64,000 nt of DNA from a bacterium (GCA_050239825.1 JBFXGO010000004.1:4590-68589), one strand, 5' to 3'; shown: positions 37,636-64,000, numbered from the stretch's first letter. The notes: generated by a model from the sequence alone, not told the origin. Numbers and translations: made by a program.

Positions 37636-38483
37636 GCGGCTCCCATCATGATGGCGGTAAGACCGACAATCATGTCGTATTTTATATAATTGTTGACGAA
37701 CCTCTTTGTTTTAATGTCGTCAAAGATGTAAAAAATTATAAGAAGCACTATAAGCACAATGTCCACTCCGAAAAAAGTTATGAAGAAGTACCATTTGTTG
37801 TATGTTCCGTTAAAGTAAGGTATGAATGTTATAACAATGAGAGAGAGAAAAACCACTGCGGCTATGAAGAATGATTTTGTCTTTCCGATTATTATAGGCA
37901 TTGTCTTCATTCCCGCATACTCGTCTCCATCAACATCCTCAATGTCCTTCGTTATCTCTCTTCCGAGATTCATTAAGAAGGAGAATATTGCCGGGAATAT
38001 TCCCTTTGTAAAATCCCCGCCTGCCTCGGCTCCGAAAATGAAGAGTATCCCTGTAAGGAGAGATATGGTAAGGTTTCCTATGAATGGAAGGCGTTTGAAT
38101 GACCAAGAGTAAAGAAAGAGCAGCACTGCGGATATAAGGGCGATTACAAATCCGATTTTTGATATGAATGCGGAGATTACTATGCCTGAAATTAAAAAGA
38201 CAAATACAAGGACGAACATGTGCCTGAGGTTGAAATCCATTGCTATAAGCGGACGGGATGGCTTGTTGATCTTGTCAGTCTCTATGTCAAACAGGTCATT
38301 CACAATGTTGCCTCCGGCAAAGACCAAAAAAACTGTCACTACCGAGAGTGTGAGTTTGATATAATCAGGATCCCTCGTTGCTATGAACGCGGAAATTATA
38401 ACCGAAAGCACCCCCATCAGGCAGTTGTTGAGCCTGATGAGGTACATAAAACCTATGAATTTACTGTTTTGGCTTTGCTTCAT
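37632..38483 (-). CDS. UbiA-family prenyltransferase
   Basis: 283 aa polytopic protein with NDLFDIETDKINKPSRP (first Asp-rich motif) and a second D-rich motif. It is translationally coupled to uppP. Confidence 0.75.
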   Translation of the reverse strand: MKQSQNSKFIGFMYLIRLNNCLMGVLSVIISAFIATRDPDYIKLTLSVVTVFLVFAGGNIVNDLFDIETDKINKPSRPLIAMDFNLRHMFVLVFVFLISGIVISAFISKIGFVIALISAVLLFLYSWSFKRLPFIGNLTISLLTGILFIFGAEAGGDFTKGIFPAIFSFLMNLGREITKDIEDVDGDEYAGMKTMPIIIGKTKSFFIAAVVFLSLIVITFIPYFNGTYNKWYFFITFFGVDIVLIVLLIIFYIFDDIKTKRFVNNYIKYDMIVGLTAIMMGAA

Positions 38484-45830: not shown

Positions 45831-45838
45831 AAAATTTA

Positions 45839-45910
45839 AGCTGGTGGGCGGATTTGAACCGCCGACCCGCGCTTTACGAAAGCGCTGCTCTACCACTGAG
45901 CCACACCAGC
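45839..45910 (-). tRNA. tRNA-Thr (anticodon CGU)
   Basis: The reverse complement folds as a cloverleaf: acceptor GCTGGTG/CACCAGC, D-arm GGCTCAGTGGTAGAGC, anticodon stem GCGCT/AGCGC with loop TTCGTAA (anticodon CGT), T-arm GGCGG-TTCAAAT-CCGCC. CCA is not encoded. Confidence 0.8.
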
Positions 45911-49532: not shown

Positions 49533-49567
49533 ATAAGAGAGGCGCATTAAGCGCCTCTCTTATTTTG
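49533..49567. terminator. Bidirectional rho-independent terminator between convergent genes
   Basis: agagaggcgc-attaa-gcgcctctct is a perfect 10-bp stem with A/T runs on both sides. Confidence 0.6.
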
Positions 49568-50840
49568 CAAGCTCATTCAGCCGCTTCACTGCACAAAAAT
49601 CACCGCACATGGTGCATTCTTTATTTTCTCCTATCTCAGACTCCGATCTGTATCTTGCCGCTTTTAATGGGTCGATTGAATTAATTATCTGTTTGTCCCA
49701 CTCAAGGTTTCTTCTTGCATCTGTCATCTTTCTGTTTTTTCTCAAAGCATACGGCCTCTCTCTTGCAAGGTCTGCGGAGAATGCCGCTATCAGAGACGCA
49801 ACAACTCCCTCCTTTACATCTGCCGGTGTCGGCAGTCGAAGATGCTCCGATGGAGTCACATAGCACAAAAAATCAGCTCCATTATAGGCGGCAATTGCTC
49901 CTCCTATGGCTCCTGCTATGTGGTCGTACCCTGCCGAAATGTCATTGACAAGAGGCCCGAGAACATAAAATGGAACATTGTGGCAGATCCTCTTCATAAG
50001 CTTCACATTCATTTCAATTTGATTCAAAGGAACATGACCCGGACCCTCAACCATAACCTGCACACCTTTGTCTAGAGCCATCTGCGTGAGTTCGCCGAGC
50101 ACTATAAGCTCCTCTATCTGTGCCCTGTCCGAGGCATCAGCGCATGCCCCGGGTCTCATTCCGTCTCCCAATGATATTGTCACATCATACTCGTGTAGTA
50201 TGTCAAGTATTTTATCAAAATGCTCAAAGAGAGGAGATTCTTTACAGTTGTGCTTCATCCAAGCAATTAGAAATGAACCTCCCCTTGATACTACATTCAT
50301 TATTCTTTTTTCATTGAACATCCTGTTCATAGTTGCGATATTAACTCCGGAGTGTATTGTCATGAAATCAACGCCGCTCTTTGCCTGCTCCTCAACCGTC
50401 TTAAGATAGTCGTCTATAGTCATGTCGACAATGTCCTTCTTTTCGTTAGAGAGGTTAAATCCCGTCTCATAGATCGGAACTGTGCCGACCATGACATCGG
50501 ATTCCTCAAGAACTCTCTTCCTTATTATCTTGATTTTACTGCCCAAAGAGAGGTCCATAACGGAGTGCGCTCCGGCATCAATTGCTGTTTTTAGTTTCAA
50601 AATCTCTTCATCAATGTCAATATGATACGGAGAGGAGCCGATATTTGCATTTACTTTTACAGAGAGGCCTTCTCCGATTCCATATATGAATTTTTTCTTT
50701 CTTTTGCTGTTGTTGGGAATAGCTATAATTCCTCTCTTCATTCCTTCAAGTATGAAATTCTCTGACACATTTTCAAAATTCGCCACCTCTTTCATCTCTT
50801 CCGTTATGATATTTTTCAGTGCTTTATCTCTCAGTGTCAT
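49560..50840 (-). CDS. thiC: Phosphomethylpyrimidine synthase
   Basis: 426 aa. The radical-SAM-like C-terminal cluster motif CTMCGDFC is present, and the core is conserved. Confidence 0.9.
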   Translation of the reverse strand: MTLRDKALKNIITEEMKEVANFENVSENFILEGMKRGIIAIPNNSKRKKKFIYGIGEGLSVKVNANIGSSPYHIDIDEEILKLKTAIDAGAHSVMDLSLGSKIKIIRKRVLEESDVMVGTVPIYETGFNLSNEKKDIVDMTIDDYLKTVEEQAKSGVDFMTIHSGVNIATMNRMFNEKRIMNVVSRGGSFLIAWMKHNCKESPLFEHFDKILDILHEYDVTISLGDGMRPGACADASDRAQIEELIVLGELTQMALDKGVQVMVEGPGHVPLNQIEMNVKLMKRICHNVPFYVLGPLVNDISAGYDHIAGAIGGAIAAYNGADFLCYVTPSEHLRLPTPADVKEGVVASLIAAFSADLARERPYALRKNRKMTDARRNLEWDKQIINSIDPLKAARYRSESEIGENKECTMCGDFCAVKRLNELAK

Positions 50841-51876
50841 TTTTTCTCCTTAATATTGATTGTATTTTTTTGATTTCCCTCTCCGGCGAGCCGCTCTCTG
50901 TTATGTAGGAGAGAATTGCGGCATTCATAAAACCTATCTTTAAAACTGCTTTCAGATTGTGCTCTTTTATTCCGCCTATGCATACTGCGGGTACCGAAGA
51001 TTCTTTCAGCATTTTTTCAGCTTCGGAGAGTCCAAGCACCCTGTCTTTTAGAATCTTTGAGTCAGTCGGGAATACGGGTCCTATGCCCACATAATCCGGC
51101 ATCTCTTTCAACGCGCATTTAAGTTGTTTCATATTATGAGTTGATTTTCCTATTATAAGGCCACTCGATTCCCTCCTCGCCGCAAAAACAGGTATGTCGG
51201 TCTGTCCAAGATGCACACCGTCGGCATCTGACAGCAAAGCTATGTCAAGTCTGTCATTAACAATAAAGAGAGTGTCGGAGTTCTTCGTGATTGAGCGTAT
51301 TGCTCTTGCTTTTTTCAGAAGCTCCCTGCCTTCCATAAATTTGTCGCGGAACTGTATGACTCTTATACCATTCTTGACCGCTATTTCGGAGAGTTTTTCG
51401 TATCCGACCTTTGGATTTGTCATGATTATGTAGAGACCCATTTTATCTGCAAACCTTTTTCTTTTCATTGAAATAAAGAGATTTCTTTCAATATCATAGA
51501 GAGAGTATCTCATCTCTTTGAAATTTCCTGTTTTCGAGCCTTCCAATTTTGAAAATTCTTCAAGCGACCTGCATGCCTCCTGGGCTCTGCCGAATGCGCT
51601 TCCAAGGATATCGTCGATTGATGTTCTCTTGTTCATATCAAATGACTGCTCTCGGCCTAAATCCTTTTCACTCTCTCTGAAAGGAAGAGCATACTTTTCA
51701 TAACTTTTCCTGTAATTATCAAACTGAGACCTGAGAAATTTAATTTTCTTTGTTTGTTTTTCATCACTAATATGAAATCTGCATATATCCTCAATCATTC
51801 TCAATGCCTCTGACAGCCGGTTGATATTTACATCAATTATTCTTGGGGACGGTGCTTGTATTTTTGTATTTTTCAT
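50824..51876 (-). CDS. thiE: Thiamine-phosphate synthase (ThiE) with ~140-aa N-terminal extension
   Basis: 350 aa. The C-terminal 210 aa is the ThiE TIM barrel (GLYIIMT..., VIQFRDK, GVHLGQTD, IGGI). The N-terminal 140 aa has no assigned domain. Confidence 0.8.
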   Translation of the reverse strand: MKNTKIQAPSPRIIDVNINRLSEALRMIEDICRFHISDEKQTKKIKFLRSQFDNYRKSYEKYALPFRESEKDLGREQSFDMNKRTSIDDILGSAFGRAQEACRSLEEFSKLEGSKTGNFKEMRYSLYDIERNLFISMKRKRFADKMGLYIIMTNPKVGYEKLSEIAVKNGIRVIQFRDKFMEGRELLKKARAIRSITKNSDTLFIVNDRLDIALLSDADGVHLGQTDIPVFAARRESSGLIIGKSTHNMKQLKCALKEMPDYVGIGPVFPTDSKILKDRVLGLSEAEKMLKESSVPAVCIGGIKEHNLKAVLKIGFMNAAILSYITESGSPEREIKKIQSILRRKNDTER

Positions 51877-51877
51877 A

Positions 51878-52669
51878 CTATCCCCTTCTTATACTCTCCT
51901 TTAAAAGTCCGTATGCTTTCTGCCCTGAAAGAAGCATTCCGCCAAATATAGGACCCATCCTGAATCCTCCGCACACTCCATTTGCGGCCATGCCTGAAAC
52001 AAAGAAATTTTTGTAAATTTCTTTTGTGTTTTCGACTGTCTGTTTCTCTCCTACTTCCGCATTCATCGGCTTCTCTCCTTCAAATTCTCCTGACGGGGTG
52101 TTAAGCCTGACTCCTGCCTTTTTAACCAGAGTATTCGCAAGCTCCGCGGGATGCCCTGTTGAATCCATCACAGTTTTTGAATAGACGGTTATAGGGTCGA
52201 CATGAAGCCCCATATGCTCAACCGGAGTCCAATTTATCACAATTCCGCACACTGAATCATTCTTAAAGACAGTGTCAACAACTTTTACAAGATTGAAGAG
52301 CTTCGCTCCTGAATTCACGGCAGAGTTTATAAGCGCGGAAGTGCACTCAACAGAATCGCATGTAAAGTAATCATCGTTATGCTCCTTCACTCTCACATTG
52401 AACATTTTGAGAACATTTAGAGCCTCTCTCTGCACTACTATTTCATTGAACATCATTCCGCCGCCCCACATGCCGCCTCCGGGAGCAAGTTTCGATTCAT
52501 AGACCGCAACATTAAATCCGTCTTTCGCCAAAAGAGCTGCCGCCACAAGACCTGACGGACCTGCGCCTACTATTGCGGCATCAAGATGCAATGAATCTTT
52601 CAGCTTCTTAAAGTAAGAGTCTATTATCAGTTCGCTCACCTTTGTGTCATCAAGCATTTTAACCTCCAT
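51878..52669 (-). CDS. thi4: Thi4-family thiazole synthase (archaeal/eukaryotic type)
   Basis: 263 aa with FAD/NAD-binding AIVGAGPSGLVAAALLAK and the conserved GMWGGGMMF motif of Thi4. Confidence 0.85.
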   Translation of the reverse strand: MEVKMLDDTKVSELIIDSYFKKLKDSLHLDAAIVGAGPSGLVAAALLAKDGFNVAVYESKLAPGGGMWGGGMMFNEIVVQREALNVLKMFNVRVKEHNDDYFTCDSVECTSALINSAVNSGAKLFNLVKVVDTVFKNDSVCGIVINWTPVEHMGLHVDPITVYSKTVMDSTGHPAELANTLVKKAGVRLNTPSGEFEGEKPMNAEVGEKQTVENTKEIYKNFFVSGMAANGVCGGFRMGPIFGGMLLSGQKAYGLLKESIRRG

Positions 52670-52699
52670 TAAGAATAAAAAAAATCAGGGGAACCTGAT

Positions 52700-52795
52700 T
52701 TTGTAATTTTCCTACGGCAGAATTACCTGCATCAGGTTCAAGGGTCAGCGGAAAAGACCGCTTTCTCAGCCACTTTTAGTAGCTCCCCAAATAGA
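52700..52795 (-). promoter_or_regulatory. TPP (thiamine pyrophosphate) riboswitch controlling thi4-thiE-thiC
   Basis: The minus-strand sequence reads GGGGAGC...GGCUGAGA...GACCCUUGAACCUGAUGCAGGUAAUUCUGCCGUAGGAA. This matches the THI-box consensus CUGAGA...ACCCUUUGAACCUGAUCUGGAUAAUGCCAGCGUAGGGAA. It is followed by the hairpin aaatcaggggaacctgattt before the RBS and start. Confidence 0.85.
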
Positions 52796-52839
52796 TTAAA
52801 CACCATATCAAACATAAAGTCAAGACCCGCATCTTAAAA

Positions 52840-54116
52840 ACGCAATCTGACAGGTAATTCAGTTACGAGTTTCGGGTTGCGGGTTACGAGTTTAAATACA
52901 ATAGGACAGATGATTAAATGACTTGTCTTTACATTTCCGAGGAAAAATTCCAGTACAGCCAGCAAAACAGCCGTGAGCCGTGTGCCATGTGCCTTGAGCT
53001 TAATACGGGGAGTTGAGTAAGATTTTGCCTTTACATTTCCGAATGAGAAGCCTGTCCACAGCGCTCGTCTTTTCAATGCTTCTCATGAGGACAATCAATT
53101 AAATAACTTATTGATACACGAAAGCTACAAGTCGGCGAGGACGCTTCGCGCAGACGCCCATCAAGTGGTTCTCTCCTCGCTCCGCTAACCCATCTTGATA
53201 TAGCGGCGAAGCGGAGTGTGCGAGCCGACGCTATGCCCGCGTGCAGCCAGCAAAACAGCCCTGAGCCGTGTGCCATGTGCCATGAGCTTAATACGGGGAG
53301 TTGAGTAAGATTTTGCCTTTACATTTCCGAATGAGAAGCCTGTCCACAGCGCTCGTCTTTTCAATGCTTCTCATGAGGACAATCAATTAGATAACTTATT
53401 GATACACGAAAGCTACAAGTCGGCGAGGACGCTTCGCGCAGACGCCCATCAAGTGGTTCTCTCCTTGCTCCGCTAACCCATCTTGATATAGCGGCGAAGC
53501 GGAGTGTGCGAGCCGACGCTATGCCCGCGTGCAGCCCCAGTTCAATCTTCAATTATCAATCAACAATAAAATGATAGACCCTTCACGATAGTCATAACCA
53601 CAGAGGCGTTCAGGGTGACACGGTTGAGTAAGATTTTGTCTTTACAATAATCTTCACAAAGTTCTGGTGCAACCCGAGGCGTCTATCATGTGCGTTCGCG
53701 CACATTACACCCTCGCCAATGTGGGGACATTCCTTCGGTGTGTCCCCACTGCAACATTCAATTAATTAACTTATTGATACACGAAAGCTACAAGTCGGCG
53801 AGGACGCTCCGCGAAGACGCCCATCAAGTGGTTCTCTCCTTGCTCCGCTAACCCATCTTGATATAGCGGCGAAGCGGAGTGTGCGAGCCGACGCTATGCC
53901 CGCGTGCAGCCCCAGTTCAATCTTCAATTATCAATCAACAATAAAATGATAGACCCTTCACGATAGTCATAACCATAGAGGCGTTCAGGGTGACACGGTT
54001 GAGTCATAACCATAGAGGCGTTCAGGGTGACACTATTGAGTCATAACCACAGAGGCGTTCAGGGTGACACGGTTGAGTAAGATTTTGTCTTTACAGACTG
54101 GTGTTCAAGCTGACGC
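52840..54116. repeat. Repeat-dense GC-rich non-coding region: nested direct repeats and hairpins
   Basis: A 288-bp unit at 52955-53247 recurs nearly identically at 53243-53535. A third copy of its 142-bp sub-unit lies at 53769-53910. The 37-mer tcataaccayagaggcgttcagggtgacacggttgag occurs once at 53591-53627 and as three tandem copies at 53966-54076. The motif ttgagtaagattttgyctttaca recurs five times. The module ttcagttacgagtttcgggttgcgggttacgagtttaaatacaat lies at 52858-52905. Confidence 0.85.
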
Positions 54117-54869
54117 TTACTCTTCTAACAACCTCAAAATTCCGTTTATAACTGTCAAAGGGTGCACAGGACAACCGGGTATGTATAAATCAATTTTATG
54201 ATTTTTCATAAATTCTCTATTCAATGCATCTGACCCTGAAAAGATTCCACCGCTAATTGCGCATGCTCCTGCCAGTATGATGATTTTAGGTTCAGGCACT
54301 GCTTTGTATGTCTCCTCAAGCGCCTCTGCCATATTCTCACTCACCGGTCCCGTTATTATTATGCCGTCTGCATGGCGCGGGCTTGCCACAATATCCACTC
54401 CGAATCTTCCCATATCAAAATTGACATTTGAACACGCATTAAGTTCCATCTCACATCCATTGCATCCTCCGGCTGAGACTGAGCGAAGTTTCAATGATTT
54501 TTTGAAGATTTTTTTTATGTCGGCTCTTGTTTTAATGGCGTCTCTGAACCTAATCTTATATTCAGTATTTGCCGTCACTATAAGCTTCTCCCTCGAATCG
54601 CATGAAATTCTGTGCTCATCAGTAAATTTCACAATATTCTCCCCGAGCTTTCTTTCGCACTTCCCGCAGAAAGTGCATTTGCCGAGGTCTATCGAGAATG
54701 GCGCATTTAAAATTGCATCGGCAGGGCAGAGACCCTCTATTTCGCTTTTGATTAGATTCTCTTTCTTAATTTCAGGGAATCCCCTGAACATCTCATTGAC
54801 TTTTGCATTTTTAACATCAGGTATAAACTGACGCCCCTGTCTTAATGATATTTTTATGTTTTCAAACAT
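54117..54869 (-). CDS. Complex-I/hydrogenase small-subunit homologue (NuoB/HyfI-like) with N-terminal degenerate ferredoxin segment
   Basis: 250 aa. Proximal [4Fe-4S] ligand motifs GGCNGCEMEL, GACAISGG and PGCPVHP. The N-terminus (CP...CTFCGKC) is a half-degenerate 4Fe-4S ferredoxin motif. Confidence 0.8.
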   Translation of the reverse strand: MFENIKISLRQGRQFIPDVKNAKVNEMFRGFPEIKKENLIKSEIEGLCPADAILNAPFSIDLGKCTFCGKCERKLGENIVKFTDEHRISCDSREKLIVTANTEYKIRFRDAIKTRADIKKIFKKSLKLRSVSAGGCNGCEMELNACSNVNFDMGRFGVDIVASPRHADGIIITGPVSENMAEALEETYKAVPEPKIIILAGACAISGGIFSGSDALNREFMKNHKIDLYIPGCPVHPLTVINGILRLLEE

Positions 54870-54875
54870 AGCACC

Positions 54876-56387
54876 TCACAGATCATTTCCGCAGTATGAA
54901 AGGTTAAAACTCTTGTTGCACAGAGGGAAATCCGATATGCCGTTTCCTCTGACAGAGAGAGCAAGCGCGAACCAGTTGTTGAATGAAGGGTCCTTTATCT
55001 TATATCTTGCCCTGTTCTTTTCATCTGTCACAACTGCATGCACGACCTCTCCCCTCCACCCTTCAATAAGAGATATCAGGAATGTGTTTGATGGAATTTC
55101 CATTTTCTCGGGAACCGACACAGATGGAGAATCACCCAGTACCATAAGAAGTTCATTTATATAATTCATTGACTGCTGCATTTCAAGATACCTCAGATAT
55201 GCCCTCGCAAAAACATCGCCAGTGTCGAGAGAAAGAGGATGAATCGGATACTTCCTGTATGCTCCGAAAGGATGATCGCTCCTTGAATCAATCTTCACTC
55301 CTGATGCGCGCGCCGCCATGCCGACGAAGCCGCATTCTCGCGCCTGCTTTGCCGTTACTGCCCCAGTATTTTCAAGTCTCGAAAGAACCGAGGGCGAATC
55401 AAACATCTCTTCACACAACTGCTCCATATTTTCCCTGACAATATGAAGATTTTTCTTTATCAGATTTCTCTTTTTTTCTGTTATCCTGTAATTATTCTTT
55501 CCAATTCCTATGAATCCCCTTCCGAACCTGCTTCCGCAGATTGCAAGCATTGTGTTTATCACATAAGTCCTATTTGCTCCTGAGACTGCACTCCCTATCA
55601 TGTATGCCACATCATTGGCTATAGCTCCAATATCTCCTATATGAACTGCGATTCTTTCCATCTCAAGAGCTATCGCTCTCTCAAGAAGTTCATCTTCCGT
55701 CGGTTTAATATCGAGAGTTCCTTCAATTATACTGCTGTACGCATAGGCATTTCCAATCACAGTGTCACCCGTAATCGATTCAGCCAATTCCATTTTGTCT
55801 GTAATATTTCCCTTCAAAAAGAGATTTTCAACCCCTCTGTGCTGGTAACCGAGCTGTATTTCGAGATGAATTATCTTTTCTCCTTCGCATAAGAATCTGA
55901 AATGACCGGGTTCAATAACTCCTGCATGAACAGGACCGACTGCGACCTGATGGATTTCATCGCTTGAAATTGTATAAAAGGGGTAATCATAGGTTTTCGC
56001 TTTATTATCAAATTTACAGTGCGGATATCTGACCGGCTTTAGGAAAGGATGCCCCTCCGGGACAATCCCCCACTCTTCAAACAATTCTCTTTCAAACAAA
56101 TTGAATGAAGGATGATAATTCGTAAGTGATTCATACTTCATTCTCTGTTTTTCAAAGAGTGTTGAGACGATGTACATCAAAGAGTTGTTGTCATCGCTCA
56201 TCACTGCATAAACTCTCACGCTTTCTCCCTCTTTCTTTCCGAACAGAAGTATGCACCTCTTTGATTCATCTACAGATTTTTTTAAAAATGAGATAAATTC
56301 GTTTATGTTAAGATCCGGTATTTCTTTTGTGCTTATTTTTAATCCGTTTTTGATTTTGGTTGATTCCATCATTTTCTCCCAATCCAA
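54876..56387 (-). CDS. Fused NuoC-NuoD / hydrogenase large-subunit homologue lacking NiFe-ligating cysteines (Ehr-type)
   Basis: 503 aa. The NuoC-like N-terminus (NLFERELFEEWGIVPEGHPFL) precedes a NuoD/HycE-like core (GPVHAGVIEPGHFRF...LGYQHRGVENL). The L1 position reads SITGDTVIGNAY (no CxxC) and the C-terminus NLSYCGNDL carries one Cys instead of DPCxxC. Confidence 0.8.
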   Translation of the reverse strand: MDWEKMMESTKIKNGLKISTKEIPDLNINEFISFLKKSVDESKRCILLFGKKEGESVRVYAVMSDDNNSLMYIVSTLFEKQRMKYESLTNYHPSFNLFERELFEEWGIVPEGHPFLKPVRYPHCKFDNKAKTYDYPFYTISSDEIHQVAVGPVHAGVIEPGHFRFLCEGEKIIHLEIQLGYQHRGVENLFLKGNITDKMELAESITGDTVIGNAYAYSSIIEGTLDIKPTEDELLERAIALEMERIAVHIGDIGAIANDVAYMIGSAVSGANRTYVINTMLAICGSRFGRGFIGIGKNNYRITEKKRNLIKKNLHIVRENMEQLCEEMFDSPSVLSRLENTGAVTAKQARECGFVGMAARASGVKIDSRSDHPFGAYRKYPIHPLSLDTGDVFARAYLRYLEMQQSMNYINELLMVLGDSPSVSVPEKMEIPSNTFLISLIEGWRGEVVHAVVTDEKNRARYKIKDPSFNNWFALALSVRGNGISDFPLCNKSFNLSYCGNDL

Positions 56388-57772
56388 TGAGCCGCATTTT
56401 CCAGCATCTCCTTAACCGGTTCAGGCATGTAAAATCCAAGCAGGAAACAGACCAGTATAAGAATAATCTGAGGAATATAGCCCGGCAAACTTTCATCTGA
56501 CTTCCCGCTCTTTTCTCCTGAAAAGAGCATGGTTATAACCATCTTCATGAAGCCATAGAATAGTGCCGTCAGAAGAACAAGAATAACTGCGAGTTCCAGA
56601 TACATGCTTTTTTCCAGAAGATTCTTCACAAGCAGAAATTCGCTTAGGAACGAGAGAGAGGATGGTATTCCAAGTATTCCGAGAGCAGATAACAGGAAAA
56701 TGATTCCCGTTTTCTTCATATCATTGAACACATTTCCCGTCTCATCATAATGTTTTGTTTTGTATTTTTCAAGAATATTTCCTGTTGTAAGAAATAAGGA
56801 TGCCTTCATCATTGAATGTCCGAGAAGATGAATCATACCCGCAAGAAGACCCAATCCGCCGCTGCCTAATGACAGGGCTATTATTCCCATATTCTCCACA
56901 GAAGAGTAAGCGAGCATTCTCTTATAGTTCTTAATCCTTAATATGAATACTGTCGAAACGAATATCGAAAGAATGCCCATCACAACAAGCATGGTGCCGG
57001 CAAAATGCTCTGCATTGAATATGTACATCACCTTCAAAACTCTTATGATTCCTATTAGGGCTGTATTTAGAAGAGTCGCCGACAGCATCGCGGAAACGGG
57101 AGACGGGGCTTCAGAGTGCGCGTCGGGAAGCCAGAAATGCAGAGGAGCAAGACCCATTTTTGTTCCAAATCCTATGAGAATGAACAGAAATGATATTTTT
57201 AAAAACAGAGGGGTCACTCCGTCGGTGTAATTGTAAAAATCCGCGAAAAAGAGCGAGTCGGCATGCTTGAATGTTATTGATAAAAATATTATTCCTAAAA
57301 AACCGATAGCTATGCCGATGGAGCATATAAAGACATATTTCCATGCGGCTTCAAGAGAGTGCTTTGTTTTGCTGAAATAAATGAGAGGCGCAGTGAGTAT
57401 TGTCGTCGCTTCAAGAAGAACCCAATAAAGTCCGATGTGCTGAGCCATAAGAGATAGCATCATCAGCAAATCAAATAAAATGAAACACACTGTATATACA
57501 GAGTGCCATGTGTTGTCAGGATTATTTTTCTTTAAAAATTCAACAGAGTAAATTGATGACGCGAAAAAGACAAGCGATAAAACAAATAAAAAGGGTTTGT
57601 TAAGAGAATCAACAGCAATGAACTTTGTCGAAATCTGATTTACAAACAGAATGTAGAGTGTGAATATCAGATTAATCACGCCGTTGACAGCGAGCAGTAC
57701 ATAATCAGCGGACCTTCTCCTTAGAAGAGCCGATGCCGATGCAAACAATAAAGGCAAAATAAAATAGTACAT
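56369..57772 (-). CDS. NuoM/NuoN/HyfF-like antiporter-type membrane subunit
   Basis: 467 aa, about 14 TM segments, with the Mrp/NuoLMN-family conserved core (GLAPLHFWLPDAHSEAPSPVSA). Confidence 0.75.
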   Translation of the reverse strand: MYYFILPLLFASASALLRRRSADYVLLAVNGVINLIFTLYILFVNQISTKFIAVDSLNKPFLFVLSLVFFASSIYSVEFLKKNNPDNTWHSVYTVCFILFDLLMMLSLMAQHIGLYWVLLEATTILTAPLIYFSKTKHSLEAAWKYVFICSIGIAIGFLGIIFLSITFKHADSLFFADFYNYTDGVTPLFLKISFLFILIGFGTKMGLAPLHFWLPDAHSEAPSPVSAMLSATLLNTALIGIIRVLKVMYIFNAEHFAGTMLVVMGILSIFVSTVFILRIKNYKRMLAYSSVENMGIIALSLGSGGLGLLAGMIHLLGHSMMKASLFLTTGNILEKYKTKHYDETGNVFNDMKKTGIIFLLSALGILGIPSSLSFLSEFLLVKNLLEKSMYLELAVILVLLTALFYGFMKMVITMLFSGEKSGKSDESLPGYIPQIILILVCFLLGFYMPEPVKEMLENAAHWIGRK

Positions 57773-58407
57773 CAGTCCCTCAGGTCCGTCAGATTGTCTA
57801 TGTTGTCGTCATTATAACTCTCCTTTATCCTCGAAATAAAAAAGCCTGAAATGAAGACAATCATGAAGAGTTCGAGCAAAACTCCAAGATTCACGATGAG
57901 AGGCATCTCCTTTAAAAGAGAGAGTGAAAACAGAAAGATTCCGTTTTCAAACACCATGTAACCCATTATATGCGTTATCAGCCGTTTCTTTGTAAGTATA
58001 ATGTACATTCCGGCGATTATTGAAGAGAATGCCACACCAAAATGAAATGGATTGGAGTAGCTTAAAAGATCTTTTGTATAAAACGAGAGCAAAAATCCGA
58101 ATGAAAATATAAGTATCATCGCGAGTATTGAGAAGAAACTTGATATAGAAACATCAACATCCCTTGATGCTTCATTCTGATAAACAATTCTTCCGAGTAT
58201 ATATGGAATCAGAATTGTCTTGAAACCGATTGTCTCCAAAAGAATAAATATCAGATTCGGCAGATTTGTCTCTTTCATATTTATAAGCACAATCAGAAAA
58301 AGAATCACACCCTGAGCCGATAGAGCGCCTATATATGCTTTAAGGCGGCTCGTCACCGAAAAGTATATGACTGTTCCCGCGAACAATACAAGCAGGGCAA
58401 AGTACAT
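57772..58407 (-). CDS. HyfE-like small membrane subunit
   Basis: 211 aa with about 6-7 TM segments. Its size and position between the NuoH-like and NuoN-like genes match hydrogenase-4 subunit E. Confidence 0.5.
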   Translation of the reverse strand: MYFALLVLFAGTVIYFSVTSRLKAYIGALSAQGVILFLIVLINMKETNLPNLIFILLETIGFKTILIPYILGRIVYQNEASRDVDVSISSFFSILAMILIFSFGFLLSFYTKDLLSYSNPFHFGVAFSSIIAGMYIILTKKRLITHIMGYMVFENGIFLFSLSLLKEMPLIVNLGVLLELFMIVFISGFFISRIKESYNDDNIDNLTDLRD

Positions 58408-59324
58408 TACACGCCACCTCCGCGCCCCATAAGGACAGATGCTATTATGAAGAGGGCAATTCCAAAGACAAGAAGCAAAAATTGAGAAACATAAATCATT
58501 TTCAATCTTGCCATTATGGATTCAATCGTTCCTACTATAATTGCGGATACTATGCTTACCGCTATAAATCCTCCAAGAGCAAAGAGTACCCCTGACTCCA
58601 TAAATATGACAGAAGAAATCAGAGCTGTGAATATTGTCATTTTGAGATATGTCGCATAATTTATCAGCGCCAAGGAAGGACCCGAGTGGTCGAGAACCAT
58701 AACCTCATGGATCATTGTCAATTCAAGGTGCGTATTCGGATCATCAACAGGCACTCTCTTCCCTTCGGACAGTATCATGACAAAGAATGCCGCAATAGAA
58801 AGCAGAGAGGCCACAATCGTATACGAATTTGTAAAATTGAGAGTCGAAATCATCTTCGAAATTGAAGTGTTTCCAGAGAGGTATATGAATGATGATAGTA
58901 TAATGAATAGGGAAGGTTCAATAAATAGAGCAAATGACGCCTCCCTGCTTGCTCCCATTCCTTCAAAACTCGAACCGGTGTCAAGCGCCGAAAGCAGCAT
59001 GAAAAAATTGCCGATAGTCATTATATATGCAAAGAATAGGAAATCTCCTTCAAATGAAAGAATGGATTTGTTGAACCCATAAGGAACGAACAAAACCGCA
59101 GTGAGCACTGAAGAGACATAAAACACTGGACCTACAGAGAACATAAATGAAACAGTCTCTGAAATCATCTCTCTCTTCTTAAAAAGCTTGATGCAGTCTA
59201 ACATCGGCTGAAAAACCGATGGACCTTTTCTACCAGCCCACAATGACTTGACCCTATTTATAATTCCCGCAAAGAGAAAAGGCATAACGAGAATCATGAT
59301 TAAAGTGGTAAAAATATTCATCAT
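58407..59324 (-). CDS. NuoH/HyfC/HycD-like membrane subunit
   Basis: 305 aa. The N-terminal signature INRVKSLWAGRKGPSVFQPMLDCIKLFKKRE matches the NuoH-family consensus RxxxARxQxRxGPxxxGxxQPxADxxKLxxKE. Confidence 0.75.
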   Translation of the reverse strand: MMNIFTTLIMILVMPFLFAGIINRVKSLWAGRKGPSVFQPMLDCIKLFKKREMISETVSFMFSVGPVFYVSSVLTAVLFVPYGFNKSILSFEGDFLFFAYIMTIGNFFMLLSALDTGSSFEGMGASREASFALFIEPSLFIILSSFIYLSGNTSISKMISTLNFTNSYTIVASLLSIAAFFVMILSEGKRVPVDDPNTHLELTMIHEVMVLDHSGPSLALINYATYLKMTIFTALISSVIFMESGVLFALGGFIAVSIVSAIIVGTIESIMARLKMIYVSQFLLLVFGIALFIIASVLMGRGGGV

Positions 59325-61300
59325 TGCTTAATTATTAATATTAGAAGTGAAATCAACAGAAACAGCAATCCCATAAGAAGATACTGCTGAGTGGAGCCCT
59401 TTTGAATTCCGGAAAATCTGTCAAAGAATCTTTTAAGAAATCCCATTGAGGGTGCTATCAGATACTTTTCAAATACATCCTGCTTCTCTTTTTCCACACT
59501 CATTTTCTTTGGAAAGTACTCCTCTATCTCAGTTTTTGTCCCTCTCTCATTTAAAAGCATTGATGATATATTCCTAAGCGGCTCAGTATAGGATGATGAT
59601 TTGTACTGCACTTCCGGTGTTCCTCTGACATAACCGCAATCCCACACCCTCTCGGCTCTTCCAATTCTGCCCTTAAGCATTAGCCTCCTCAGCATAAAAA
59701 CAACGGAGAAGATCAGAAGAAACAAAAGAGAACTAAAAGAGATATTCGTAAGAATTCTCTTGAAATAGATTAAAACAAGAGAGTGCTCTTCCGGAAATGA
59801 AGAGTGAATAACTTGGCTTAACAGATTAAATGCCAGTTGAGGAAAAAGACCTGTCAGAAGTATCAACGTCGACATAAGAATCATAGAAACAAGAGATACC
59901 TTCATGTCATCTTTTATGTCATGTGCGAACGAACTCCTTGCGGAGCCGAGAAGCATTATGCCAGATGCTTTCGTGAAACAGACGACTGCCATTACTCCGA
60001 CAAAAGCAATCACTGTCATTGCGCATACTGATATCACCGCAAGGGGCATCACGGATGTTCTTACTCCCTCTACTGCCCCAAAATAAATCATGAATTCAGA
60101 TATGAAGCCGCTTAAGAGAGGAAGGCCTGAAATGGCAGCGCTTCCTATTATGAACATGTATGAAGAGTAGGGCATAAGCTTTAACAAACCGCCGAGTCTG
60201 TTGATGTTTCTCGTATGTGTCTTCAAGTATATGTTGCCTGATGAAAAGAAAAGCAGAGGTTTAAAGATAGAATGGTTTAATGAGTGAAGCAAAGCTCCGG
60301 AAAATCCCAATACTGTCATCATCGGATTTTTATAAGCATTTCCCGCAAGCATCAGTCCTATTCCTATGCCAATTATTCCCATGTTTTCAATTGAAGAGTA
60401 AGCAAGAAGTTTCTTTATGTCATTTTCAAACATCGCATACAGTATACCAATAAGAGCTGTCACCGAAGATATTGATAATACCGCAAATATAATAACTTTT
60501 GACGGAGTTTCAAGCATCAGCGAGAATCTGAGTATGCCGAATATTCCCATCTTCAGCATTATTCCCGACATAAACCCGGATATATTTGACACAGATGCAG
60601 GATGAGCTTTCGGAAGCCAATTGTGAAACGGGGCAAACCCCGCCTTAATGCCAAATCCGAAAAACAAAAGAAGAAATGCAACCATCGCTTTCATCGATTT
60701 GTTATTGAGAGAATCTCTGAAAGAGAGCATATTCAAATCACCTGCCATATTAGAAAGAAGCAAAAAACCTGTGAGTATGAAAAGAAAACCTATGTGCATA
60801 TAGACAAAATACTCAAGCCCGGCTCTCCTGACATCCTCTTTGCCTCCCTCAAACATAATTGCCAGAAATGATGTGAGAGACATGACCTCCCACACCATCA
60901 AAAAAGCAAAGATGTTTTGCATAGTCAGAAGCAATACCATGGATAGTATAAGAAAATTGAATGAAAGGTACAAAAGAACAAATTGATTTTTGTTCTGATA
61001 CTCTTTAAGATAATCAATAGAGTAAAGCGATGTGAAAATAGCGCCAAGATAAGTTATTAAAAGGAAGAATGCTGAAAGAGGGTCTATTCTTACAATTATG
61101 TCGCCGACAGGGCTAAATGAGAATAAGAGAGTCTCAGTGGTGCATCCTCTGATGACAGATTCAAGCGCAGGAATCATTCCGATTGTTGAAGAGACAAGAA
61201 TCAGCGCAAACGAATAGAGAGGTTTTTTATTGTTGCTCACTTTCAAGCCGCAGATAGTTCCCACAAAAAGTATGACAGAGGAAATGATATACAACTTCAA
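59321..61300 (-). CDS. NuoL/HyfB-like antiporter-type membrane subunit
   Basis: 659 aa, about 16 TM segments, with the NuoL-family core (GFAPFHNWLPKAHPASVSNISGFMSG). Confidence 0.8.
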   Translation of the reverse strand: MKLYIISSVILFVGTICGLKVSNNKKPLYSFALILVSSTIGMIPALESVIRGCTTETLLFSFSPVGDIIVRIDPLSAFFLLITYLGAIFTSLYSIDYLKEYQNKNQFVLLYLSFNFLILSMVLLLTMQNIFAFLMVWEVMSLTSFLAIMFEGGKEDVRRAGLEYFVYMHIGFLFILTGFLLLSNMAGDLNMLSFRDSLNNKSMKAMVAFLLLFFGFGIKAGFAPFHNWLPKAHPASVSNISGFMSGIMLKMGIFGILRFSLMLETPSKVIIFAVLSISSVTALIGILYAMFENDIKKLLAYSSIENMGIIGIGIGLMLAGNAYKNPMMTVLGFSGALLHSLNHSIFKPLLFFSSGNIYLKTHTRNINRLGGLLKLMPYSSYMFIIGSAAISGLPLLSGFISEFMIYFGAVEGVRTSVMPLAVISVCAMTVIAFVGVMAVVCFTKASGIMLLGSARSSFAHDIKDDMKVSLVSMILMSTLILLTGLFPQLAFNLLSQVIHSSFPEEHSLVLIYFKRILTNISFSSLLFLLIFSVVFMLRRLMLKGRIGRAERVWDCGYVRGTPEVQYKSSSYTEPLRNISSMLLNERGTKTEIEEYFPKKMSVEKEKQDVFEKYLIAPSMGFLKRFFDRFSGIQKGSTQQYLLMGLLFLLISLLILIIKQ

Positions 61301-61998
61301 AATTTCTCCTGCATCAATTGCTTTTCAATTTCAAAGAGAAGTTCGTCTTTGTTCGGTTTTTTGCTGAGAAGTTCCGCAAATTCGCTTCTCTGTATAATGT
61401 AAGAGAGCAAAGAGAGGGTTTTCAAATGGTTTTTATGATTTGATGTTATTATAATAAACAGAGTATGCAGATACTCTTTTTTTTCGCCGTAGACGAAGGG
61501 TGTCTTTAAAAAGCAGACTGCCACAAGAGAATTTTCGGCATCGGTGATTATGGGTTTCTTCGGATGCGGCACAGCAACGCCCTGTCCTATGTAGGTGGGA
61601 ATCATCTCCTCTCTCTCTAATAAAAATGAAAGGAGAAGATTCTTATCCACAGAGTTTGAAAGAGGCAAAAGTGAAATGGCATTCGAGAGGACACTCTTTA
61701 TGTCACTTCCTTCAATATTATAGTAAATTCCGCCGTTTTTTATTAGCTCGGCAAGAAATGCAGGTTTTTCAATATTTTGTAATTTTATGAATTCACTTGT
61801 CAGAGATGCCCTTCTGTTAAGAATCCACTCGCTTATCTCTCCCTTATTAAATCTGTACTGCTTATTTATCATATAGAAAGGAATCTCATTCCTCTTTATG
61901 AGGCCTATGATATCCTTTTCGGATAGTTTGAGTAACAATGATATATCTTTAACTCTTAAATCCATCTTTTTCCTTCTTGGAATTGAAATTATAGACAA
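61297..61998 (-). CDS. HTH (MerR/excisionase-type) + PTS EIIA-Ntr domain regulator, first gene of the Ehr-like operon
   Basis: 233 aa. An N-terminal HTH (LRVKDISLLLKLSEKDIIGLIKRNEIPF) precedes an EIIA type-2 domain with the active-site His intact (GQGVAVPHPKK). An ATGA overlap joins it to the NuoL-like gene. Confidence 0.65.
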   Translation of the reverse strand: MSIISIPRRKKMDLRVKDISLLLKLSEKDIIGLIKRNEIPFYMINKQYRFNKGEISEWILNRRASLTSEFIKLQNIEKPAFLAELIKNGGIYYNIEGSDIKSVLSNAISLLPLSNSVDKNLLLSFLLEREEMIPTYIGQGVAVPHPKKPIITDAENSLVAVCFLKTPFVYGEKKEYLHTLFIIITSNHKNHLKTLSLLSYIIQRSEFAELLSKKPNKDELLFEIEKQLMQEKF

Positions 61999-62029
61999 TT
62001 ATCTATAAATGTCAAGCGACATTGTTTAC

Positions 62030-62165
62030 CAAAAGTGATGTGCGAGACGGCGCTACACCCGAGTGCAGCCACCAAAGCAGCCTTCAATAATAAAAGATAA
62101 TTCAGTTACGAGTTTCGGGTTACGGGTTACGAGTTATGAGTTTAAATACAATATGTATCGAGACT
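62030..62165. repeat. Second copy of the repeat family seen at 52.8-54.1 kb
   Basis: gtgcgagacggcgctacacccgagtgcagcc...ccttcaataataaaagata...taattcagttacgagtttcgggttacgggttacgagttatgagtttaaatacaat is a near-identical set of modules to 53215-53247, 53536-53575 and 52855-52905. Confidence 0.7.
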
Positions 62166-62508
62166 TGTCAAGGAAGTTGTGTAAAGAGGGATTAGTATTC
62201 ATAAGGGAGTTCTCCAAAGAGATTAACGAAGGATTGGCGGAGGTAATATAATTTAGCAATGATTTTAGGATAACCGTTTTTCCATTTAGGTAACGGATAT
62301 AAATATTAATGAAGAGGATGTCTTCGGATTGGAAGAATCCGCCCTTTTGCTATCGCAAAGTACGGTGTGAAATATAATCGTGACCATTACAATACTATTA
62401 TGCAAACTTCTTGACAAAGTGGGCGCAATACAATATGATTAAAATGATTAATAAAAAGGAGATGGTTTTGAAAAAGAAATTAGAAGGAGTATTTAAACAG
62501 GAGGAATT

Positions 62509-64000
62509 GTGAAAAAAGTTATTTTTATTATCATTATTATTGCTTCAGCATTGTTTGTTTTTGCTTCAAATGAGAGACCATTCAGAGAAGAGGATATGCT
62601 TCTTGCTAACTTTGAACAACCGGAAGATTACAATCAACCCAACTGGGCGACAGATAGTTTGAATGTAAGGGGAGTAGGAATTTATCCTTTCTTTGGAGAT
62701 GCATATGATGTTTTCATCGTAGATACATTAGCGTATTCTTGCATGAATAATTATCTAGTAGTGTTAAATGTTAAGAACAAAGCAAATCCTTTTTTGGTAG
62801 GTTATTTTAGTTTACCGGGTTATGCTTATGGTGTCTATGTTTCAGGAGATTATGCGTATGTTGCTGATGAGGATTATGGTTTACAGATAATAGATATCTC
62901 AAATCCTTCAAGCCCAACCCTTGCAGGGAGCTATGATACACCGAGTTATGCTTATAGTGTCTATGTTTCAGGCAGTTATGCCTATGTTGCTGATGAGGGT
63001 TATGGTTTACAGATAATAGATATCTCAAATCCTTCAAGCCCAACCCTAACAGGAAGCTATGATACACCGGATTATGCAAGGGGTGTCTATGTCTCAGGAG
63101 ATTATGCCTATGTTGCTGATGATAGTTCTGGTTTACAGATAATAGATATCTCAAATCCCATAAGCCCAACCCTTGCAGGGAACTATGATACACCGGATCA
63201 TGCATGGGGTGTCTATGTTTCAGGCAGTTATGCCTATGTTGCTGATGGTTATTCTGGTTTACAGATAATAGATATCTCAAATCCTTCAAGCCCAACACTT
63301 GCAGGGAGCTATGATACACCGGGTTATGCATTGGGTGTCTATGTTTCAGGCAGTTATGCCTATGTTGCTGATGCTGATTATGGTTTACAGATAATAGATA
63401 TCTCAAATCCTTCAAGCCCAACCCTTACAGGGAGCTATGAAACACAGGGTTATGCTTATGGTGTCTATGTATCAGGCAGTTATGCCTATGTTGCTGATTA
63501 TGATTATGGTTTACAGGTAATAGATATCTCAAATCCTTCAAGCCCAACCCTTACAGGGAGCTATGATACACCGGGTTATGCATGGGGTGTCTATGTTTCA
63601 GGCAGTTATGCCTATGTTACTGATCGTAATTCAGGTCTACAGATAATCAACATCTCTGACCCCACAAGCCCAACACTTGCAGAGAGCTATGATACACCGG
63701 GGTGGGCTTATGGTGTCTATGTTTCCGGCAGTTATGCCTATGTTGCTGATGATGATTATGGTTTACAGATAATAGATATCTCAAATCCTTCAAGCCCAAC
63801 TCTTGCAGGAAGCTATGATACACCGGGGAATGCTATAGGTGTCTATGTATCAGGCAGTTATGCCTATGTTACTGATCGTAATTCAGGTCTACAGATAATC
63901 AACATCTCTGACCCCACAAGCCCAACACTTACAGGAAACTATGATACACCGGGGATTGCAAGGGGTGTCTATGTTTCAGGAGATTATGCCTATGTTGCTG
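62509..64000 (+). CDS. LVIVD-repeat surface protein (signal peptide; runs off window end)
   Basis: GGAGG lies 7 nt upstream of the GTG. After the signal peptide VKKVIFIIIIIASALFVFA come 13 or more consecutive 40-aa LVIVD units (GVYVSGSYAYVADxDYGLQIIDISNPSSPTLxGSYDTPGxA), nearly identical at the DNA level. Confidence 0.8.
   Translation, partial: MKKVIFIIIIIASALFVFASNERPFREEDMLLANFEQPEDYNQPNWATDSLNVRGVGIYPFFGDAYDVFIVDTLAYSCMNNYLVVLNVKNKANPFLVGYFSLPGYAYGVYVSGDYAYVADEDYGLQIIDISNPSSPTLAGSYDTPSYAYSVYVSGSYAYVADEGYGLQIIDISNPSSPTLTGSYDTPDYARGVYVSGDYAYVADDSSGLQIIDISNPISPTLAGNYDTPDHAWGVYVSGSYAYVADGYSGLQIIDISNPSSPTLAGSYDTPGYALGVYVSGSYAYVADADYGLQIIDISNPSSPTLTGSYETQGYAYGVYVSGSYAYVADYDYGLQVIDISNPSSPTLTGSYDTPGYAWGVYVSGSYAYVTDRNSGLQIINISDPTSPTLAESYDTPGWAYGVYVSGSYAYVADDDYGLQIIDISNPSSPTLAGSYDTPGNAIGVYVSGSYAYVTDRNSGLQIINISDPTSPTLTGNYDTPGIARGVYVSGDYAYVA

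Follow-up and report, generated by a model that had tools for sequence, protein, structure and literature searches.

An intact Ehr complex with a metal-free large subunit and its own HTH-EIIA regulator in a bacterial locus

The 64,000-nucleotide (nt) stretch of bacterial DNA analysed here (GCA_050239825.1, JBFXGO010000004.1:4590-68589; hereafter the window) carries on its minus strand, at positions 61965-54117, an intact and complete Ehr (Ech/energy-converting hydrogenase-related) complex together with its own regulator gene. The complex is an ordinary member of a named and widespread kind, and it is selectively maintained. On balance, it is probably a ferredoxin-linked, ion-translocating oxidoreductase that reduces an acceptor in a metal-free pocket, perhaps reversibly, and whose expression is controlled by the phosphotransferase system (PTS).

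Subunits of the complex and the former NiFe site

After correction of one start, seven co-directional open reading frames (ORFs) run head to tail on the minus strand: an HTH_17/PTS-EIIA gene, NuoL/HyfB-like, NuoH/HyfC-like, HyfE-like and NuoN/HyfF-like genes, a NuoC-NuoD fusion and a NuoI-NuoB small subunit. The ORF map and the Pfam and NCBIfam matches bear out the Hyf-like seven-gene operon that an original prediction, made from the sequence alone, had placed here. All six structural genes are homologous to subunits of group-4 [NiFe] hydrogenases and complex I, and every match of the operon proteins to the Hyf equivalog models of NCBIfam lies under the curated cut-off. Since the junctions overlap (TTGA, ATGA, TAATG, TGATG and TGATG, in order) and only the last one leaves a 6-nt gap, the genes are translationally coupled, as had been claimed. 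The limits of the operon needed one change: its downstream end at 54117 was correct, but the first gene really starts 33 nt further in, at ATG 61965 and not at 61998.

The EhrL-type large subunit (54876-56369, minus strand), a NuoC-NuoD fusion recognised by the Complex1_30kDa and Complex1_49kDa models, most likely starts at ATG 56369, as in a 100% identical database protein, which gives 497 residues; TTG 56387 would give 503, and we number residues on this longer form. Its PDB matches are led by MbhL (6cfw_L, 1.7e-37) and include HycE (7z0s_E, 1.5e-35), NuoD (1e-20) and MbsL (6u8y_L, 7e-11), and no solved structure of any Ehr member is among them. In residue-level alignments to MbhL and HycE, SITGDT stands opposite MCGIC/VCGIC and the C-terminus NLSYCGNDL stands opposite DPCYSCTDR. 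Because TGDT and NLSYCGNDL occupy the ligand positions, both NiFe cysteine pairs of the large subunit are absent, just as predicted, and no intact CxxC...CxxC arrangement, which was looked for by alignment, is present. Hydrogen chemistry is therefore excluded. The last residue of the protein corresponds to the cleavage site of hydrogenase precursors, and there is no C-terminal maturation extension.

At the former NiFe positions the family has motifs of its own, which in the window protein are E203-x3-G207-D208-T209 and the C-terminus NKSFNLSYCGNDL. The patterns E-x3-G-D-[TS] and KSF[NDS]LSY[CSA]GxDL are found there in all of the 120 best database relatives. In 83 loci spread over many phyla these replacements hardly vary, and the NiFe cysteines are absent there too. 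The E-x3-G-D-[TS] motif, the beta1-beta2 loop VGPxHAGxIEPGHFRF and the C-terminus NKSFNLSYCGxDL make up a conserved metal-free pocket. Cys499, in the former active-site region, is nearly invariant; a minority of members have Ser or Ala instead. When the subunit was modelled with AlphaFold (predicted TM-score 0.89), HycE (7z0s_E) came out as the best fold match, with a TM-score of 0.83. The only low-confidence stretches of the model, residues 150-161 and 488-503, are its two most conserved motifs, as would be expected of elements that pack against partner subunits. In an alignment to Thermus thermophilus Nqo4, residues H38 and Y87, which we take to be those of the quinone site, fall on I158 and G207, and the quinone-site His/Tyr pair of complex I is not present in the large subunit.

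For the EhrS-type small subunit (54117-54869, minus strand; 250 aa), the description as NuoB-like with its proximal [4Fe-4S] ligands was right, but an N-terminal NuoI/HycF-like domain had gone unmentioned. The protein is a NuoI-NuoB fusion in which residues 1-110 form a NuoI/HycF-like ferredoxin domain (a weak NuoI/HycF match lies in the first 100 residues) and residues 115-250 form a NuoB/HycG/MbhJ-like domain (Oxidored_q6). When the latter is aligned to MbhJ and HycG, all four proximal cysteines are found in place (C136, C139, C203 and C233, in GGCNGCE, GACAISGG and PGCP). Relatives with both ferredoxin motifs read C-x2-C-x2-C-x3-CP ... C-x2-C-x2-C-x3-CP; in the window protein, the first motif is reduced to its CP and the second to its CxxCxxC. 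What it retains, C48-P and C65xxC68xxC71, is enough for one [4Fe-4S] site, and presumably C48 joins C65, C68 and C71 in binding a single cluster in the ferredoxin fold, at the N6b position beside the NuoB cluster, as in Nqo9/NuoI. Because the fusion adds this site, the complex does have a cluster at which electrons could enter, and the NuoI-like and proximal sites together therefore make a two-cluster wire.

We surveyed the Fe-S ligands of 66 small subunits. About half of them keep both ferredoxin-type clusters and the proximal one, and in about 70% of the family, the window protein included, the wire is complete, with two or three clusters and CxxC ligands of the hydrogenase type. The N6b-like cluster is the sole one to be universally retained (97%). 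The distal ferredoxin-type cluster is gone in the window protein, in the WOR-3 protein, in most Gastranaerophilales/Melainabacteria and in a few others, and the proximal ligands are substituted in 19 Bacteroidia-type proteins and one Opitutae protein. All 19 Bacteroidia-type proteins have Asp, Asp and Asn at ligand positions 1, 3 and 4 (typically GGDNSCE, GTDAISGG and PGNP), and five of them have also exchanged the second cysteine; despite these substitutions, the large-subunit motifs of the clade are unchanged. Two readings are possible, namely that something else is bound at the proximal site of these proteins or that selection on the family as a whole is for something other than electron delivery to the pocket. 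The operons of this clade (loci L019-L026, L029-L031, L034, L039-L041, L043, L045, L048, L071 and L078) often have two NuoL-like genes, have no HTH-EIIA gene and sometimes come with a divergent Crp-type regulator.

The four membrane subunits, all on the minus strand, were scored for conservation over 54-73 sequences each. The antiporter-like EhrA-type subunit (59321-61300; 659 aa; NuoL/HyfB/HycC-like; PF00361 (Proton_antipo_M), 5e-53) has HyfB as its best NCBIfam match (514 bits against a cut-off of 667), carries a HycC-type C-terminal extension (WxCGY) and has HycC (7z0s_C) and MbhH (6cfw_H) as closest solved relatives; its E138, K219, H339/H343/K347 and E402 are at least 93% conserved (59 sequences). 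In the EhrB-type subunit (58407-59324; 305 aa; NuoH/HycD/MbhM-like; PF00146 (NADHdh), 2.7e-31), whose closest solved relatives are HycD (7z0s_D) and MbhM, 51 positions are at least 93% conserved, the acidic loop P192-D212 among them, and 21 charged residues are kept; in relatives the NuoH-like subunit is the joint of the peripheral and membrane arms. The EhrC-type subunit (57772-58407; 211 aa) is HyfE-like, matching the NCBIfam hydrogenase-4 membrane subunit model at 1.3e-12, with a NuoK/MrpC-like C-terminal half (weak PF00420) and a conserved E154. The antiporter-like EhrD-type subunit (56369-57772; 467 aa; NuoN/HyfF-like; PF00361, 3.9e-46) is best matched by HyfF (320 bits, under the cut-off), and its E121, K205, K323 and E378 are conserved (73 sequences). 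Both antiporter-like subunits, EhrA and EhrD, retain the Glu of transmembrane helix (TM) 5, the Lys of TM7, the His/Lys of TM8 and the Glu of TM12. The charged residues by which complex I, MBH and FHL translocate ions are still in place in these two and in the NuoH-like subunit. Such conservation of membrane residues across these sequences is a strong argument against a decaying relic.

Electron-input partners and the HTH-EIIA regulator

The absence of an electron-input module alongside the operon, also part of the original prediction, holds throughout the 64-kb window. Pfam and NCBIfam scans of 43 further ORFs of at least 160 aa gave no NuoE/F/G, formate dehydrogenase or ferredoxin, so that no NuoEFG-like genes stand on the same DNA; the motif CxxCxxCxxxC does not occur in any of the six frames, and separate NuoA or NuoJ homologues are likewise missing from the window. 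ORF sizes at 26-30 kb had suggested NuoEFG or HydABC genes, which turned out to encode peptide deformylase, aspartyl-tRNA synthetase (AspRS), histidyl-tRNA synthetase (HisRS) and VanZ. A UbiA-family gene (37632-38483, minus strand, between bacA and an SPFH-domain gene) was considered for quinone biosynthesis and set aside: its product is matched best by archaeal-type geranylgeranylglycerol-phosphate geranylgeranyltransferase models (203 and 193 bits, under the cut-offs), which are lipid prenyltransferases, and not by MenA/UbiA.

We also clustered 735 flanking ORFs from about 80 genome loci, and no flanking family recurs in more than seven of these loci. The commonest families are histidine kinases, SulP/STAS transporters, integrases and Crp-type regulators. 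The SulP transporter was rejected as a general partner, being present at 7 of 83 genome loci and none of 80 metagenome loci. A NuoE/F/G module with a full NuoA/H/J/K/L/M/N membrane set was found neither in the window nor beside about 80 related operons, and the same holds for formate dehydrogenase and for a HycB/HyfA-type connector. Single loci do have suggestive neighbours that are not general, such as a 2-oxoacid:ferredoxin oxidoreductase with NuoE/F-like genes downstream of ehr in a Spirochaetota locus, and molybdenum-cofactor biosynthesis genes after a Melainabacteria ehr operon, with homologues in one Verrucomicrobia locus. As no partner gene is conserved, a generic soluble donor is favoured and a fixed formate dehydrogenase partner is disfavoured.

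The first gene of the operon (61297-61965, minus strand) encodes a 222-aa protein with a helix-turn-helix domain (HTH_17; PF12728, 7e-10) at the N-terminus and, at the C-terminus, a PTS EIIA domain of the fructose/mannitol/Ntr type (PTS_EIIA_2; PF00359, 1.2e-21). Upstream of it lies a sigma-70 promoter sequence (62015-61988, minus strand; TTGACA, a 16-nt spacer and TATAAT), the sole 12/12 consensus match in 52.6-64 kb, which probably serves as the operon promoter; a ribosome-binding site, AAGGA (61975-61971), stands between it and ATG 61965. TTG 61998 is not the start of the regulator, because it lies inside this promoter and homologues begin at the position of ATG 61965. The regulator stop overlaps the start of the NuoL-like gene (TTGA), and 4-nt overlaps are frequent at this junction in other loci. 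In the EIIA domain, R118, H134 and H180 align with R49, H65 and H111 of Escherichia coli IIA-Mtl (1a3a) and are invariant in 22 family members; judged by this alignment, the phosphorylation site is intact.

A 20-nt near-palindrome (61989-62008, minus strand; 18/20; TTATAGATAATTGTCTATAA) with the half-site TGTCTA overlaps the -10 box and is a candidate operator to which the HTH-EIIA protein may bind. About 50 nt before the regulator ORF of Verrucomicrobiota, Planctomycetota and Desulfuromonadota loci we found a direct repeat, TGTC[CT]A-N4-TGTC[CT]A, which has 15 matches in 2.9 Mb of locus DNA, nine of them just upstream of regulator genes.

The pairing of such a regulator with an Ehr operon had been called unusual, which our counts contradict. 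An HTH_17-EIIA gene directly precedes the first NuoL-like gene in about 31 of the 58 genome loci with enough upstream DNA; these 31 or so belong to Spirochaetota, Ignavibacteriota, some Bacteroidota, Verrucomicrobiota, Planctomycetota and Desulfuromonadota; none was seen in the Melainabacteria, Holophagae and large Bacteroidia clade loci. Conversely, when the 80 best metagenomic matches to the regulator were taken, a NuoL-like gene directly followed in 61 (61 of the 72 that could be judged); this sample was drawn with a narrow alignment and is biased to Verrucomicrobiota/Planctomycetota-type regulators. Of the other 19, eight have too little downstream DNA and 11 are mostly short contigs or ORF-calling artefacts, and only one of the 80 is a clear exception to the order. 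The HTH-EIIA gene hence belongs regularly to Ehr operons, about half of which have it, and is nearly confined to them. No mention of GSU0738 or of the HTH_17-EIIA/Ehr pairing was found in a literature search.

Known relatives and the possible functions of the complex

The Ehr-type assignment, proposed by the original prediction, is sustained by the missing NiFe ligands, the family motifs, the gene order of Geobacteraceae and the published composition. Relatives of the large subunit number in the thousands; the 120 best, at 49-100% identity, come from WOR-3, Melainabacteria/Gastranaerophilales, Margulisiibacteriota, Spirochaetota, Chrysiogenales and others; the nearest named Ehr large subunit among these 120 is from WOR-3 (62% identity). 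A scan of one genome per species found it in at least 592 species, and its carriers include the cultured Geomonas limicola and Geothrix paludis as well as Bacteroidota, Verrucomicrobiota, Planctomycetota, Ignavibacteriota and others. The order NuoL-like, NuoH-like, HyfE-like, NuoN-like, NuoCD, NuoIB is nearly universal in 80 loci, sometimes with a second NuoL-like gene. The window AspRS is 65% identical to proteins of candidate division TA06 and WOR-3, and together with the WOR-3 origin of that nearest large subunit this is consistent with vertical inheritance within the WOR-3/TA06 lineage. At a WOR-3 locus (L001, 6570-12770) a second complex-I-like cluster faces the ehr operon in convergent orientation; its 20, 30 and 49 kDa genes are separate, and it also has NuoH-like genes, antiporter-like ones and the gene of a 619-aa GltD/SudA-like Fe-S flavoprotein. 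Loci L063 and L074 also hold a second, more divergent Ehr-like cluster.

The Ehr of Margulisbacteria consists of a NuoC-NuoD fusion, a NuoI-NuoB fusion, HyfB, HyfF, NuoH and HyfE (PMC6349859, supplementary note 4), which the subunit composition of the window matches exactly. The same six subunits make up the Ehr of Riflemargulisbacteria, Saganbacteria and Melainabacteria (PMC6349859) and of comammox Nitrospira, where its function "remains unknown" (PMC10284858). Melainabacteria and Margulisiibacteriota proteins, at 50-53% identity, are among the closest database relatives of the window large subunit; the window differs in having an HTH-EIIA gene, which the Melainabacteria loci examined do not, and in showing no sign of the formate dehydrogenase partner proposed for those lineages (PMC6349859). 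In Geobacter sulfurreducens, GSU0739-0745 are EhrA-1, A-2, B, C, D, L and S, proteins that are detected and expressed and whose role "has never been investigated" (PMC7894505); another paper terms the Geobacter Ehr 'nonfunctional' (PMC13194489). By its published description, the G. sulfurreducens complex is like that of the window in subunit types and order, in a large subunit without NiFe ligands and in a NuoI-NuoB small subunit, and unlike it in having two NuoL-like genes instead of one. Three Geobacteraceae loci (Geomonas limicola L066, L063 and L084) share with the window the signature motifs and the HTH-EIIA gene, and a seven- or eight-gene layout like that of the window is found in Geobacteraceae such as Geomonas limicola, at 40-41% identity (about 40% for the large subunit of Geomonas); however, Geobacteraceae small subunits retain the distal ferredoxin-type cluster that the window protein has lost. 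No protein actually named EhrL was among the matches of a homologue search started from Geomonas.

Among characterised systems, E. coli Hyf (HyfABCDEFGHIJ) and formate hydrogenlyase-1 (FHL-1; HycBCDEFG, 7Z0S) provide the best sequence and fold relatives for every subunit (HycE, HycC, HycD, HycG and HyfE) and share with the window the NuoC-NuoD fusion and the CxxC-type ligation of the proximal cluster. The window system, in contrast, has no NiFe site and no equivalents of HyfA/HycB, HyfD, HyfJ or FdhF, its HyfH and HyfI counterparts are fused with the HyfH part reduced to one cluster, and its regulator is an HTH-EIIA protein where Hyf/FHL has the sigma-54 activators HyfR/FhlA. MBH (6CFW) and MBS (6U8Y) of Pyrococcus furiosus are ferredoxin-dependent, ion-translocating complexes with the same peripheral-arm core; however, a NiFe site and an Mrp-type sodium module set MBH apart, and MBS, a distant match (7e-11), has a different membrane arm, whereas the window encodes four membrane subunits only. 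Complex I/NDH-1 shares common ancestry, the NuoB, C, D, H, I, L and N-type modules and the ion-translocation residues, and differs in its NuoE/F/G module, in separate NuoA, J and K, in its quinone-site His/Tyr pair and in the tandem CC of NuoB, which ligates the proximal cluster where the window has CxxC.

We favour a ferredoxin-linked oxidoreductase because it agrees best with a wire of two clusters, a peripheral arm of the hydrogenase type and ion-translocation residues that are intact. The anatomy of the complex and its conservation are what we observed; from them we infer which donor and acceptor are used, which way the reaction runs, which ion is moved and how expression is regulated. A soluble low-potential carrier, most likely reduced ferredoxin, would dock on the NuoI-like domain, and electrons would cross two clusters to the metal-free pocket at the interface of the large and NuoH-like subunits, where the acceptor would be reduced. 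Charge and conformational change would drive the translocation of H+ or Na+ via EhrA and EhrD, and reverse operation may yield reduced ferredoxin. The regulator would bind the promoter region of its own operon, with an activity set by phosphorylation of His134 in its EIIA domain via an HPr/NPr-type protein, and ehr expression would be tied in this way to the phosphoenolpyruvate (PEP)/pyruvate or the carbon/nitrogen state of the cell.

Several points weigh against this explanation. The function of Ehr is stated as unknown in the literature (PMC10284858, PMC7894505). In the Bacteroidia clade, three of the four proximal ligands have gone from Cys to Asp, Asp and Asn with the large-subunit motifs unchanged, which is hard to square with electron delivery to the pocket as the universal function of the family. 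Loss of the first ferredoxin-type cluster has recurred, in the window among others, and the pocket, besides having no complex I quinone-site pair, has no obvious set of ligands for a redox cofactor. On the regulatory side, the window palindrome is arranged differently from the direct repeats of other phyla, and neither an HPr/NPr gene nor an enzyme I gene was found in the 64-kb window, so that the phosphoryl donor is assumed.

Some of these points would be at home in a redox-independent or redox-gated ion transporter, that is, an Mrp-like cation/proton translocator built on a hydrogenase scaffold, whose Fe-S clusters would be relics or sensors, whose pocket would serve gating or a non-redox reaction and whose EIIA protein would link the complex to ion or nutrient homeostasis in a PtsN-like manner. 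We consider this explanation as a whole unlikely, though it is the main rival. PtsN is linked to K+ transport in enterobacteria. The invariance of large-subunit motifs and membrane residues in Bacteroidia proteins that have lost their proximal ligands, the repeated loss of the distal ferredoxin-type cluster, the lack of a conserved redox partner nearby and the retention of the N6b-like cluster as the only universal one (97%) all speak for it. The complete two- or three-cluster CxxC wire of the window protein and of about 70% of the family speaks against it, as does the retention of any cluster under selection, which suggests that electrons matter; NuoH-like subunits, moreover, are known to us solely from redox-coupled members of the superfamily. 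There is likewise a limited chance that the universal function of Ehr is something other than electron delivery to the former active site, in which case selection may keep the pocket and the ion-translocation residues and the Fe-S wire may be eroding in several lineages and be broken in Bacteroidia. If so, Ehr would be a PTS-controlled ion-translocating machine of a new kind, or an enzyme with a new non-redox pocket chemistry, and the HTH-EIIA protein would be its dedicated regulator.

The remaining explanations fare less well. A ferredoxin:quinone oxidoreductase, a minimal complex I comparable with cyanobacterial NDH-1 or the Methanothrix Fpo-like complex that would reduce quinone in the cavity between the large and NuoH-like subunits, seems distinctly unlikely, even though the architecture and the conserved NuoH loop resemble those of quinone-reducing relatives and many Ehr hosts (Geobacteraceae, Bacteroidota, Planctomycetota) make menaquinone. 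The large subunit is nearer to HycE/MbhL than to NuoD (1e-37 against 1e-20), Ile and Gly stand where Nqo4 has His38 and Tyr87, separate NuoA/NuoJ homologues are lacking and the sole UbiA-family gene of the window is not MenA-like. The family is also common in Margulisbacteria and in Gastranaerophilales, which are fermenters. Quinone has been discussed as a possible acceptor, and yet full quinone biosynthesis pathways were not identified in Riflemargulisbacteria genomes (PMC6349859). The same study put forward an FDH-Ehr in Margulisbacteria and Saganbacteria, and Ehr could accordingly be the membrane module of a formate-oxidising complex whose molybdenum formate dehydrogenase (FDH) is encoded elsewhere; the greater abundance of G. 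sulfurreducens Ehr subunits on formate (PMC7894505) and the molybdenum-cofactor genes after the Melainabacteria operon, with their homologues at one Verrucomicrobia locus, fit this proposal. We find it very unlikely, since no formate dehydrogenase or HycB/HyfA-type connector stands beside some 80 operons or in the window itself, and the window protein lacks the distal cluster, to which such a connector would pass its electrons.

Still less probable is a sulfane-sulfur/polysulfide reductase like Mbs (formerly Mbx) of Pyrococcus. Mbs is a group-4 relative that has lost its NiFe ligands and oxidises ferredoxin, and the nearly invariant Cys499 in the former active-site region would suit sulfur chemistry. 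MbsL is a distant match (6u8y_L, 7e-11, against 1.7e-37 for MbhL), however, the subunit set is different, with no Mrp-type MbsA-G, and Cys499 is replaced by Ser or Ala in a minority of members. Finally, a true group-4 [NiFe] hydrogenase (Hyf/FHL-2) or its decaying remnant, to which the Hyf subunits as best family matches and the 'nonfunctional' label of the Geobacter Ehr (PMC13194489) might point, has next to no chance. All four NiFe cysteines are absent and the Hyf matches are all under the curated cut-off, while seven ORFs that are intact and coupled, motifs and dozens of membrane residues that are conserved over at least 592 species, and the detection of the Geobacter proteins do not suit a remnant. 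We therefore regard a hydrogenase or a pseudogene cluster as ruled out by the alignments, the intact ORFs and the conservation.

Surroundings of the operon and biological meaning

Two copies of a 41-nt direct repeat (39/41; 52852-52892 and 62095-62135, extending to about 58 nt with a 5-nt indel) occur in the 64 kb, 9243 nt apart, and exactly bracket the region that runs from the ehr promoter through the operon and the repeat-rich stretch behind it. These repeats may be the scar of a cassette insertion between the thi operon and a gene with LVIVD repeats. No integrase lies between them, and integrase genes flank ehr in four to five other loci. Inside the right-hand copy, a 7-nt unit, AGTTACG, is repeated about 5.6 times (62104-62142), some 100 nt upstream of the ehr promoter. 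The stretch from the operon stop to the thiamine pyrophosphate (TPP) riboswitch (52953-54095) is GC-richer than its surroundings and consists of repeats, with two 288-nt copies (98% identical), a diverged third one, and a 37-nt unit in three tandem copies (53965-54078) and once more at 53590. An Rfam search of this stretch returned only the known TPP riboswitch, and no convincing terminator was found after the ehr operon.

Immediately downstream lies a thiamine operon (49560-52799, minus strand; thi4 for a sulfide-dependent thiazole synthase, a long thiE and thiC), headed by the TPP riboswitch (52692-52799). On the other side, from about 62500 to 64000 on the plus strand, a divergent gene continues past the end of the window; its product has a signal peptide and at least ten 42-residue repeats (GVYVSGSYAYVAD..GLQIIDISNPSSPTL) that resemble beta-propeller repeats of the LVIVD type. 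A 204-aa minus-strand ORF at 62807-63421 was dismissed as an artefact of the 126-nt tandem repeat. The rest of the window holds housekeeping genes, the thiamine operon and carotenoid genes, among others. One 238-aa ORF at 2074-2790 (minus strand; neighbours at 1254-2105 and 2811-3266) adjoins a squalene/phytoene synthase gene and matches only the N-terminal 60 and C-terminal 180 positions of phytoene desaturase CrtI/CrtD, and it may be internally deleted or split. Three tandem 120-nt copies (48698-49067; 95%) lie inside a 420-aa MJ0042-type zinc-ribbon gene (48248-49510). At 44295-45910, the longest ORF of the PRK/uridine-kinase family (GTG 45896) overlaps a tRNA-Thr(CGT) gene (45839-45910), and its real start is therefore further in.

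Ehr complexes stand evolutionarily between membrane hydrogenases and respiratory complex I, and they are carried by hundreds of species, among them gut Melainabacteria and Bacteroidia, Geobacteraceae, Planctomycetota, Verrucomicrobiota and Spirochaetota. The present locus adds no new type of system; what is gained comes from comparison, which shows that the regulator is dedicated, that no partner is fixed and that natural Fe-S variants exist. The HTH-EIIA regulator and its candidate operator point to the PTS phosphorylation state as the physiological signal, and the natural variants with three, two and one Fe-S sites, together with the clade of substituted ligands, are ready tests of the role of electron transfer in the family.

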